Positions 2,444 to 4,924 of a stretch of 9,671 nt of DNA are shown in pieces (within the stretch, counting starts at the first letter, position 1; every line of letters starts with the position of its first letter). The notes beneath the pieces are model-generated. The model was not told where the DNA came from and searched no databases. It saw nothing but the letters and a program-made list of their open reading frames with translations. This stretch comes from a virus (Duplodnaviria; Heunggongvirae; Uroviricota; Caudoviricetes), in IMG/VR virus record IMGVR_UViG_2526164667_000039, one strand, 5' to 3'. The position numbers and the translations under genes were made by a program.

Positions 2444-3076
2444 TCATTGATTCACCTCCTGCCTGTCGTCCGGCATTCGCTCACTACAGCTTATCCAACC
2501 ATCCGGAGTTACCGGAGAATTGCCATTTACCAAATCAGCTCGAACATATAGCGTGTCATCATGGTGCTGATTGTGGCTGCACCACGTTAATTCGCTTAAC
2601 TCGCCATCTTCTGGCCATACTCCAGCTGTTTGCAGCCAGATATGGGCTGGCGCATCCTGGCAAGGTGTATTAACTGGAAACTTGTAAGTTTGGCTTACAG
2701 GTTGGCTACCCTGAAGCATGGCGGCGCGGCAGGCGTTCCAGCCATCTGCGTAACAATCTCTGTGTGTCTTGAAATATGTCACCGCCCTTGGTACATCGTT
2801 TACGTCTATTTCATCCGGCACAACCGGCGCAGGTGAGTCAGCATAAACAGGAATAACGTCCGGTTGCTCTTTATTGCTTTCATCCGTTAAAGCCCAGAAT
2901 AATTTCCCGGCCGGATGTTTGAAAATATAAGCAACTGGTTCTGCTTCCAGCGATGCCAGAGCAATTCGTGCCAGTTCTTCCGCTTCTTCTGCTGGCAGTA
3001 CAACGTTGCTACCAGGTCCGTATGTTTCGCGCCACTGCTTGATTGTCAGTAGTCGCTCTTTGGTAATAGTGATCAT
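2444..3076 (-). CDS. Hypothetical prophage accessory protein (gene B), 210 aa, now separated from its native upstream context by IS2
   Basis: The ATG at 3076-3074 lies 7 nt from the IS2 left end. Removing IS2 plus one duplication copy shows this ATG overlaps the reconstructed TGA of the upstream gene (ATGA) and sits 8 nt after a GAAGGA RBS. The C-terminal WISCSERMPDD weakly resembles the start of a DUF551-type motif, but the protein ends 8 aa later. Confidence 0.6.
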   Translation of the reverse strand: MITITKERLLTIKQWRETYGPGSNVVLPAEEAEELARIALASLEAEPVAYIFKHPAGKLFWALTDESNKEQPDVIPVYADSPAPVVPDEIDVNDVPRAVTYFKTHRDCYADGWNACRAAMLQGSQPVSQTYKFPVNTPCQDAPAHIWLQTAGVWPEDGELSELTWCSHNQHHDDTLYVRADLVNGNSPVTPDGWISCSERMPDDRQEVNQ

Positions 3077-3077
3077 G

Positions 3078-3082
3078 CCGCG
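3078..3082. repeat. IS2 target-site duplication, left copy (CCGCG)
   Basis: CCGCG directly precedes the IS2 left inverted repeat, and an identical CCGCG follows the right inverted repeat at 4414-4418. A 5-bp duplication is characteristic of IS2. Confidence 0.85.
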
Positions 3083-3173
3083 TAGACTGGCCCCCTGAAT
3101 CTCCAGACAACCAGTATCACTTATTTAAGTGATAGTCTTAATACTAGTTTTTAGACTAGTCATTGGAGAGCAG

Positions 3174-3539
3174 ATGATTGATGTCTTAGGACCGGAGAAA
3201 CGCAGACGGCGTACCACACAGGAAAAGATCGCAATTGTTCAGCAGAGCTTTGAACCAGGGATGACGGTCTCCCTCGTTGCCCGGCAACATGGTGTAGCAG
3301 CCAGCCAGTTATTTCTCTGGCGTAAGCAATACCAGGAAGGAAGTCTTACTGCTGTCGCCGCCGGAGAACAGGTTGTTCCTGCCTCTGAACTTGCTGCCGC
3401 CATGAAGCAGATTAAAGAACTCCAGCGCCTGCTCGGCAAGAAAACGATGGAAAATGAACTCCTCAAAGAAGCCGTTGAATATGGACGGGCAAAAAAGTGG
3501 ATAGCGCACGCGCCCTTATTGCCCGGGGATGGGGAGTAA
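3174..3539 (+). CDS. insC: IS2 transposase OrfA (InsC), 121 aa, helix-turn-helix DNA-binding subunit
   Basis: [56 protein letters not shown]... is recognised as IS2 InsC. The ORF track begins at an upstream alternative start (3129), but ATG 3174 is the known start. Confidence 0.9.
3491..3497 (+). promoter_or_regulatory. A AAA AAG slippery heptamer for programmed -1 ribosomal frameshifting that produces the InsCD fusion transposase
   Basis: AAAAAAG sits in the insC zero frame (codons GCA AAA AAG) at the start of the insC/insD overlap, and insD is in the -1 frame. This is the standard IS3-family arrangement. Confidence 0.7.
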
Positions 3540-4402
3540 GCTTAGTCAGCCGTTGTCTCCGGGTGTCGCGTGCGCAGTTGCACGTCATTCTCAGACGAAC
3601 CGATGACTGGATGGATGGCCGCCGCAGTCGTCACACTGATGATACGGATGTGCTTCTCCGTATACACCATGTTATCGGAGAGCTGCCCACGTATGGTTAT
3701 CGTCGGGTATGGGCGCTGCTTCGCAGACAGGCAGAACTTGATGGTATGCCTGCGATCAATGCCAAACGTGTTTACCGGATCATGCGCCAGAATGCGCTGT
3801 TGCTTGAGCGAAAACCTGCTGTACCGCCATCGAAACGGGCACATACAGGCAGAGTGGCTGTGAAAGAAAGTAATCAGCGATGGTGCTCTGACGGGTTCGA
3901 GTTCCGCTGTGATAACGGAGAAAAACTGCGAGTCACGTTCGCGCTGGACTGCTGTGACCGTGAGGCACTGCACTGGGCGGTCACTACGGGCGGCTTCAAC
4001 AGTGAAACAGTACAGGACGTCATGCCAGGAGCGGTGGAACGCCGCTTCGGCAACGAGCTTCCGGCGTCTCCAGTAGAGTGGCTGACGGATAATGGTTCAT
4101 GCTACCGGGCTAATGAAACACGGCAGTTTGCCCGGATGTTGGGGCTTGAACCGAAGAGCACGGCGGTGCGGAGTCCGGAGAGTAACGGCATAGCAGAGAG
4201 CTTCGTGAAAACGATAAAGCGTGACTACATCAGTGTCATGCCCAAACCAGACGGGTTAACGGCAGCAAAGAACCTTGCAGAGGCGTTCGAGCATTATAAC
4301 GAATGGCATCCGCATAGTGCACTGGGTTATCGCTCGCCACGGGAATATCTACGGCAGCAAGCCAGTAATGGGTTAAGTGATAACAGGTGTCTGGAAATAT
4401 AG
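3497..4402 (+). CDS. insD: IS2 transposase OrfB (InsD), 301 aa, DDE catalytic domain
   Basis: ...[33 protein letters not shown]...WCSDGFEF...[49 protein letters not shown]... is recognised as IS2 InsD. It is in the -1 frame relative to insC and overlaps its 3' end. Confidence 0.9.
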
Positions 4403-4924
4403 GGGCAAATCCACCGCGTTTCCTTCTTTCTTATTAACAATTACACCGTCATATATTTCATTAAGGTGCCCTCTCAACTCCATGCGCCTTAATGCAGATA
4501 ACATGTAATCGCATTCAACCTGCTTATTTCCAGTAAATGGCTTATCGTCAGGTTTACCCCAACAGCAATTACCCTTGGGCCACCCATGTACTTTCCGTAC
4601 TCTTCCGTTAACAACGTGAAGTAATCCCCAGCCAGGTGGTAAATCCTCAATTGAAATAATTCCCGGCTCACTAATAAAGAATCGCCAGTCGCCCATTCCA
4701 AGAGACGGATTTTTACGAAAACGCTTTTTTCTATCTGCCAACAAGTCAGCACGAGAACACTTCGCCTCTATCAGGCATGATGCTGAATTTCTGAATCCCA
4801 TAGCATCTGGCTGTTCTCCGGTACTGGTTACAGCTATAAAGCGGTCATGAAAACAAACCTTGAACCCGTTGCGCTTAAGGAACTTGTACGCAATCTGACA
4901 GAGTTCGCGGTGTGTTAACGCCAT
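4373..4924 (-). CDS. Putative PD-(D/E)xK nuclease-fold protein (gene A), 183 aa; the last 13 residues ([13 protein letters not shown]) are encoded by the IS2 right end
   Basis: ATG 4924-4922 is preceded by AAGGAG with a 6-nt spacer and lies 1 nt after the upstream TGA. The motif ...[22 protein letters not shown]... follows the PD-x(n)-ExK pattern of restriction-endonuclease-fold nucleases. The reconstructed native C-terminus is ...KKEGNAA-stop (171 aa). The ORF track starts at an upstream TTG (4945). Confidence 0.55.
4414..4418. repeat. IS2 target-site duplication, right copy (CCGCG)
   Basis: Identical to 3078-3082 and immediately abuts the IS2 right end. Confidence 0.85.

Follow-up and report, generated by a model that had tools for sequence, protein, structure and literature searches.

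A phage-borne MmcB-like PD-(D/E)xK nuclease-fold protein and its mosaic EaA/DUF551-family neighbour at an IS2-interrupted junction in a lambdoid prophage

Two neighbouring genes in the early-left operon of a decaying prophage

The analysis of a 9,671-nucleotide stretch of viral DNA (Caudoviricetes; IMG/VR record IMGVR_UViG_2526164667_000039), referred to here as the window, centers on two minus-strand genes, gene A and gene B, which lie between a cluster of Ea22-like genes and the prophage xis and int genes. An initial annotation, made from the sequence without database searches, had proposed them as a translationally coupled pair and a candidate defense or anti-defense module. Our results lead us to regard it as reasonably probable that the interval instead holds two independent neighbors within the exo-xis (early-left) operon of a lambdoid prophage that is in decay, in which gene A would encode a stand-alone PD-(D/E)xK DNA endonuclease and gene B would be a mosaic recombinant. 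Positions are numbered over the whole window from its first letter, residue numbers refer to the native proteins, and the open reading frame (ORF) list bears out the coordinates and strand first given for both genes.

4373-4924, minus strand: gene A ORF of the window, with its ATG at 4924
2444-3076, minus strand: gene B, 210 amino acids (aa), mosaic EaA/DUF551-family protein

Gene A is a PD-(D/E)xK nuclease-fold protein related to MmcB

Gene A is a PD-(D/E)xK nuclease-fold protein with conserved catalytic residues. The E...PD...ExK arrangement noticed at the outset proved real, with E37, D40, E53, and K55 invariant across 33 close homologs and, among 42 distant homologs, D40 again invariant and E37, E53, and K55 each conserved in at least 90%.

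4760-4816, minus strand: gene A catalytic motif, from conserved columns
4814-4816, minus strand: E37
4805-4807, minus strand: D40
4766-4768, minus strand: E53
4760-4762, minus strand: K55

The fold was examined by structure prediction and by profile comparison. The AlphaFold2 (AF2) model (predicted local distance difference test [pLDDT], 76.7; predicted template modeling score [pTM], 0.72) runs in the order helix, strand, strand, strand, helix, and further strands, giving the alpha-beta-beta-beta-alpha-beta core of the PD-(D/E)xK superfamily, with the acidic residue on strand 2 and the (D/E)xK on strand 3. Searched against the PDB, the gene A family profile retrieved 3dnx at E 1.4e-4, whereas a single-sequence search with gene A gave chance-level matches only. 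In a census of the superfamily, 3dnx is the structural representative of DUF1052/PF06319 (PMC3424549); the sequence family of this Ruegeria pomeroyi protein (SPO1766) is named "MmcB family DNA repair protein." The homology was further strengthened by hhalign, which matched the gene A family to 22 MmcB proteins with 98.0% probability (E 2e-13) and with the PD...ExKxSRxDFxxD motifs in register. The gene A catalytic columns align with VD...ECKSSRADFQAD of 3dnx/MmcB, and the S-R-x-D-F/L-x-x-D motif that comes after the catalytic residues is common to MmcB. Altogether, 134 residues of gene A align to 3dnx, so that the roughly 100 C-terminal residues initially thought unassignable are part of the MmcB-like domain, and the 14-residue stretch singled out among them is a variable loop of lower model confidence that carries insertions and deletions among homologs. 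A Foldseek search against viral models returned phage proteins named MmcB-like. In PHROGs, gene A falls into two "unknown function" families (phrog_9263 and phrog_631) with a weak "DNA repair protein" match, which turned out to be a correct lead toward MmcB.

Caulobacter MmcB is an SOS-regulated endonuclease that protects against mitomycin C and cisplatin and is thought to work with translesion polymerases on interstrand cross-links (PMC9578287). Gene A resembles it in the order of D...ExK, S-R-x-D-F-x-x-D, and a hydrophobic "LP..GLL" strand, and in being a small single-domain protein (148-171 aa for both). It differs in overall identity (24-31% only), in its additional conserved motifs (GMGDWRF, GWGLL, and KPFxxNKQxECD), and in its genetic setting: PF06319 has been described as mostly alphaproteobacterial (PMC3424549) and Caulobacter mmcB is SOS-regulated, in contrast with a family that is borne by phages, phage-plasmids, and conjugative elements and that lies here in an early-left operon.

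Several results weigh against the reading of gene A as a DNA endonuclease of the PD-(D/E)xK type related to MmcB. The Foldseek search of gene A against the PDB gave weak nuclease matches, none at E <= 0.001. The window gene A has no match to PF06319 even at E <= 1, and among its 42 distant relatives 13 match that model weakly (best E 2.9e-4); the single match with a printed score, P0267, stands at 16.9 bits against a cut-off of 22. As far as scores were printed, neither the window protein nor any of the 41 distant relatives scanned attains the gathering score of PF06319 or Hjc. The Hjc resolvase model (PF01870) is matched by 23 of the 42, also weakly and with printed scores below the cut-off, and a gathering-level score together with a close structural match to Hjc was not obtained for gene A. 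More generally, the function of the family is a predicted one on the biochemical and genetic side. No Pfam, NCBIfam, or PADLOC model matched gene A, and the annotations of Pfam, NCBIfam, and PHROG do not extend to it. What is found is homology and shared structure with 3dnx, a bona fide PF06319 member. Because the formal Pfam test fails despite this homology, gene A is best placed in the PD-(D/E)xK clan in a family of its own that is uncurated, is sister to MmcB, and lies near the Hjc resolvases, rather than in PF06319 itself.

Homologs of gene A lie beside primase genes in virulent phages

The gene A family is large. Searching a word-indexed database gave 324 homologs from across Enterobacterales, almost all of them without a name or labeled hypothetical; an exhaustive profile search collected 3,160 clusters (50% identity) at E <= 1e-3; and tblastn detected homologs in 642 phage records, including virulent Ackermannviridae and Vibrio phages. 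Specifically, it should be noted that a DNA primase gene lies directly downstream of the gene A homolog in Klebsiella phage FKP10, Salmonella phage P46FS4, Erwinia phage phiEa2809, and Vibrio phage vB_VpS_C2. These four virulent-phage genomes represent Taipeivirus, Agtrevirus, and Nezavisimistyvirus of the Ackermannviridae and the Vibrio genus Mardecavirus, and in all four the homolog and the primase gene overlap or are closely spaced. In vB_VpS_C2 (Mardecavirus), the gene order is polI, helicase, helicase, A, primase. The four primase-adjacent homologs belong to the family at E values of 1e-41 to 1e-63 and retain the catalytic motif; in the respective loci they occupy these positions within the replication module:

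L040, 3980-4486: primase-adjacent gene A homolog
L041, 3863-4480: primase-adjacent gene A homolog
L042, 2980-3591: primase-adjacent gene A homolog
L043, 2980-3618: primase-adjacent gene A homolog

That virulent phages conserve the gene within their replication modules favors a function in phage DNA metabolism over one in prophage-borne host defense. The neighbors of gene A homologs include Ead_Ea22, DUF551, DUF968, TraC, and, in prophages, NinG, RusA, RdgC, and DNA methylases, and no recurrent neighbor family was found among 94 neighboring proteins (Ead_Ea22 in 7/94; DUF551 in 4/94). The link to replication is nevertheless one suggested by synteny only, and two further Vibrio phages with gene A homologs have no annotated primase nearby; both points count on the opposing side.

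Taken together, the homology to MmcB, the conserved active site, the lack of a fixed partner, and the DNA-metabolism context support the reading that gene A encodes a PD-(D/E)xK DNA endonuclease which is metal-dependent and acts alone, a prediction made from sequence comparison and modeling. Such an enzyme would act structure-specifically on branched or damaged DNA and would support phage replication, recombination, or repair in early phage development, either by aiding replication and recombination or by clearing lesions from a DNA-damage-induced prophage. Its expression in lambdoid phages would fall in the early phase, together with that of exo/bet/gam.

A narrower proposal, which we hold tentatively and consider possible, is that the family constitutes a previously unrecognized accessory nuclease of phage replisomes that processes stalled forks, primers, or branched intermediates, that was captured by lambdoid and P1-like phages into early accessory operons, and that DUF551-type proteins might modulate. 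The primase-adjacent synteny is the one lead worth following in this respect. A nuclease directed against host defenses or host DNA is less likely.

The relationship to MmcB also invites an explanation in terms of repair, namely that gene A is a cross-link or adduct repair nuclease like that of Caulobacter, clearing lesions from the template of a damage-induced prophage (for example, after mitomycin C) before replication. MmcB is the closest characterized relative and mediates resistance to mitomycin C and cisplatin, and gene A lies in the early-left operon, beside exo/bet/gam in relatives such as phage 1717. We nevertheless judge this explanation unlikely, given the ~24-31% identity to MmcB and the unmet Pfam thresholds, and given that the family is also conserved in virulent phages, for which DNA damage is no inducer and in which its link is to primase and not to repair genes. 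On the experimental side, a repair role would likewise be a predicted function.

An IS2 insertion separates two genes that overlap in its absence

The junction between the two genes is interrupted by an insertion sequence (IS), identified as IS2 (IS3 family) by its length of ~1.3 kb, its terminal inverted repeats, its two overlapping transposase ORFs, and its 5-bp target duplication. In a near-identical strain, the element is annotated as an IS3-family transposase, and in another related strain the same region carries an IS2-family transposase. The features of the junction are the following:

3083-4413, plus strand: IS2, 1331 bp, at the A/B junction, from inverted repeats, transposase ORFs, and target duplication
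3129-3539 and 3497-4402, plus strand: overlapping IS2 transposase ORFs
3092-3123 and 4374-4405: imperfect terminal inverted repeats of IS2
3078-3082: left copy of the 5-bp target-site duplication CCGCG
4414-4418: right copy of the 5-bp target-site duplication CCGCG
4415-4924, minus strand: native part of gene A, residues 1-170 of 171, identical to P7 Upf89.0-type proteins
4373-4414, minus strand: IS2-encoded tail of the window gene A, 13 foreign residues and a stop replacing Ala171, from translations
4931-4937, minus strand: Shine-Dalgarno AAAGGAG of gene A, in the last codons of the upstream Ea22-like gene
4420-4425, minus strand: former Shine-Dalgarno AAGGAA of gene B, parted from the gene B ATG (3076) by IS2

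Removal in silico of IS2 and one copy of the duplication restores AAC GCG GCA TGA TCA and a 171-aa gene A, and at the reconstructed junction the gene A TGA overlaps the gene B ATG as ATGA. The uninterrupted junction exists in E. coli O55:H7 DEC5D at 100% identity, with an intact 171-aa gene A and without IS2. This IS-free arrangement confirms the overlap that the initial annotation had reconstructed.

Gene A and gene B are probably independent neighbors

The overlap bears on a rival explanation that builds on the initial annotation, in which A and B form a translationally coupled defense, exclusion, or anti-defense module; A would be its nuclease effector, and B would serve as its regulator, its sensor, or an immunity partner. 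Beyond the ATGA junction itself, that explanation can draw on the position of the pair in the exo-xis region, which is a variable accessory region of such phages (PMC10834534); our data agree with this setting, with Ea22-like genes upstream and DUF4222, xis, and int downstream. The overlap is, however, what would be expected here because the operon is tightly packed: a 4-nt overlap (5651/5654) also joins the two Ea22-like genes, and the Ea22 stop (4926-4928) lies 1 nt before the gene A ATG. In a comparison of 34 species-level loci from different species that carry gene A homologs, about half of the genes downstream of A overlap it by 4 nt.

The same comparison shows that the downstream partner is not constant. 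A gene of the mosaic DUF551/EaA cluster follows A in 11 of the 34 loci, all of them enterobacterial, and unrelated singletons follow it in the other 23. In phages 1717 and VT1-Sakai, the gene next to A is a 44-aa ORF, and B is absent. Conversely, Stx2c_EH0430 has a B-type gene directly after Ea22 without A, the 5' module of B alone is matched in H19J, P22-like, and RCS47 phages, and phage records in which this module is matched and the A 3' end is not are about as many as those that match both. The A homologs of virulent phages adjoin primase and have no B-like gene annotated nearby. A search of PADLOC-DB 2.0 at E <= 1 returned no family for either protein. A toxin-antitoxin-like pair was likewise rejected, as no conserved partner was found.

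In roughly 90% (~120 of ~132, estimated from an evenly spaced sample of rows) of the phage records with this A allele, comprising E. coli Shiga toxin (Stx) phages and P7, the next gene starts with the first ~47 codons of B, which speaks against complete independence. Past these codons, the gene downstream of A differs between the Stx phages and P7, so that the first ~47 codons alone are common to most A-linked neighbors and the remainder is freely swapped.

Natural fusion proteins point in the same direction as this association. They join A to DUF551, or a truncated A to a DUF551 C-terminus (P0211 and P0020), A to a B-like N-terminus (P0033), and, within the set P0090/P0101, P0211, P0020, P0033, and P0136, a TniB-like ATPase to A. 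Because A-DUF551 fusions exist, some functional link between A and DUF551-type proteins is possible, which would again run counter to independence. These fusions are nevertheless weak evidence for such a link, since the gene set is recombination-prone and DUF551 is a promiscuous, portable domain (PMC10834534); moreover, gene B of the window lacks the DUF551 core. A partner conserved wherever the putative effector occurs was not found, and we therefore consider a dedicated A-B module quite improbable. On sequence evidence, a defense pair is not supported, and A and B are better regarded as independent neighbors whose pairing would come from mosaic operon architecture.

Fusions of an Ea22 N-terminus to A also occur (P0090/P0101, Salmonella). 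The idea that gene A is a detached Ea22 C-terminal domain was considered on their account, and they were ascribed to mosaicism and not taken as functional evidence.

Gene B is a mosaic, truncated DUF551-family protein

Gene B belongs to the EaA/DUF551 genes, a highly mosaic set (in PHROGs, phrog_60 among others), and in the window it would be one recombinant of this set that has lost the DUF551 core. EaA/DUF551 proteins (PF04448; phrog_60) of lambdoid and P22-like phages share with it the N-terminal module, central blocks, and the WISxxERMP start of the DUF551 domain, and differ in that the window protein is without the DUF551 core of ~50 residues. Over residues 1-123, gene B shares 99% identity with the N-terminal part of P7 Upf89.5 (432 aa), and residues 118-208 match a different protein, in Stx2c_EH0430. 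The full-length sister allele of DEC5D (263 aa) is 98% identical to gene B over residues 1-208; it is identical to about residue 203 (similarity ends at ~2469) and then continues into a complete DUF551 domain.

2453-2500, minus strand: DUF551 remnant, gene B residues 193-208, Pfam positions 1-16 of 68

The initial annotation had noted that the WISCSERMPDD tail weakly recalls a DUF551 start, and this resemblance is genuine. Gene B scores 23.8 bits against PF04448, just above the cut-off of 22, over profile positions 1-16 of 68 only, and alignment with full-length alleles shows that the complete 68-position domain is absent and its core deleted. The protein end MPDDRQEVNQ* joins MPDDxQ, the DUF551 start, directly to the usual C-terminal ...PPQEVNQ, so the core looks to have been deleted in frame, which accounts for the restricted Pfam match. 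The window's B/DUF4222 junction is present in 7 of 5,426 complete E. coli genomes, and the truncated ending also occurs on other alleles, one of which (P0281) was found on 303 contigs.

The difficulty of assigning a fold to gene B, reported at the outset, persisted under structure prediction. Residues 1-200 have no confident fold (pLDDT <50 over most of them), and the full-length 263-aa allele reaches a pLDDT of 43.7, with only its DUF551 domain, missing in the window protein, predicted at intermediate confidence.

A stretch of ~57 bp at 2469-2525 (PDGWISCSERMP) encodes the DUF551 start motif. A 261-bp query containing it matched 2,498 of the 5,426 complete E. coli genomes, and in most sampled rows the match was confined to about this stretch at ~93-98% identity. 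Since similarity to other alleles begins or ends there, the stretch looks like a recombination joint between mosaic modules.

Consequences of IS2 for the two genes

The insertion leaves gene A nearly whole. It is not cleanly truncated: 170 of its 171 native residues are kept and 13 IS2-encoded residues are added, with this foreign tail sitting on a poorly conserved, low-confidence C-terminus. Gene B, by contrast, has probably lost efficient translation and is probably poorly expressed in the window, because IS2 took away its ribosome-binding site and upstream coupling.

Such damage raises the question of whether the locus in the window is, whatever the function of the family, an inert remnant of a decaying prophage without functional expression of either gene. 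The presence of two IS elements (IS2, 3083-4413; IS21/IS100-like, 6948-8900), an int gene frameshifted relative to the intact allele of a ~99.9% identical strain, a gene B lacking both DUF551 core and ribosome-binding site, and a genuine Q38stop in gene A of sister strain 7_33_46A, which carries the same IS2, are all consistent with this explanation. Against it, 170 of the 171 residues of gene A remain intact in the window ORF, which keeps every catalytic residue and has a Shine-Dalgarno of its own, and the spread of the truncated B ending to other alleles means that this ending is not obviously a dead end. We rate complete inertness as rather unlikely and retain the reading of two independent genes, one of them a predicted nuclease.

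Occurrence in published phages and significance

The protein encoded by gene A is already present in published phages, with no assigned function and no curated family. Upf89.0 of P7, gp06 of Stx2 phage 1717, and H0066 of VT1-Sakai are essentially gene A (98-99% identical DNA; 171 aa) and lie directly after an Ea22-like gene; downstream, P7 carries Upf89.5 (432 aa) and phage 1717 the 44-aa ORF. All are annotated as a hypothetical protein only or, in the RefSeq record of P7, as "minor tail protein," a misleading label. In the DEC5D RefSeq record, a 179-nt piece of gene A is marked as a "frameshifted" pseudogene, yet the 171-codon ORF is intact (L039, 3739-4254). Both misannotations look like the result of a family without a curated model. 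The gene A region was also inspected at L003, 5874-6425. The literature was searched for MmcB-like proteins of phages, for Upf89.0 and DUF551, and for the core genes of Ackermannviridae; no study on the function of gene A was found, and the search yielded general remarks only, on DUF551 and Ea22 mosaicism.

A fold and a probable activity can now be given to a protein that is unnamed or misannotated in many Stx phages, P7, and hundreds of other phages. Should the primase-adjacent position in virulent phages have a functional basis, phage DNA replication or repair would gain a new accessory factor in this family, and it might affect the recovery of Stx prophages from the DNA damage that induces them. 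The A-B pair, in turn, drops off the list of possible new defense systems.

Layout of the window and prophage context

The window is part of a lambdoid prophage within the E. coli fimbrial usher gene fimD. Strains 7_33_46A, F2_407_2_2, and DEC9B match it at ~99.9% and have the same IS2. The remaining features are as follows:

387-1673, minus strand: int, from the ORF list and related-strain annotation
1706-1960, minus strand: xis, from the ORF list and related-strain annotation
between xis and the DUF4222 gene, minus strand: small ORF
2117-2395, minus strand: DUF4222 gene
4926-5654, minus strand: Ea22-like gene directly upstream of gene A, in the same operon
5651-6364 and 6328-6975, minus strand: further Ea22-like ORFs
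7014-7652: istB of the IS21/IS100-like element
7794-8816: istA of the IS21/IS100-like element
8861-9451, minus strand: yfdR

A scan of 2300-5100 for promoters and terminators gave results at or below chance level. At the left edge, only an N-terminal fragment of fimD (type 1 fimbrial usher) remains, at 1-339 beside int; the matching strain has fimA, fimI, and fimC upstream of it. The int gene is frameshifted near 1292-1300 into two minus-strand ORFs (1292-1672 and 387-1259), and an intact 428-aa integrase is annotated in a ~99.9% identical strain; the frameshift may be either real decay or a one-base sequencing error. The IS21/IS100-like element (6948-8900; 1953 bp) lies between the Ea22-like cluster and yfdR, has a 5-bp target duplication, and is missing from otherwise ~99.9% identical strains and from DEC5D. 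The yfdR gene encodes a 5'-deoxynucleotidase and is followed in matching strains (L003/L039) by yfdQ and yfdP. These three genes are named in a study of CPS-53 and DnaA binding (PMC4776307), and in this gene content the left arm of the prophage resembles CPS-53/KpLE1.

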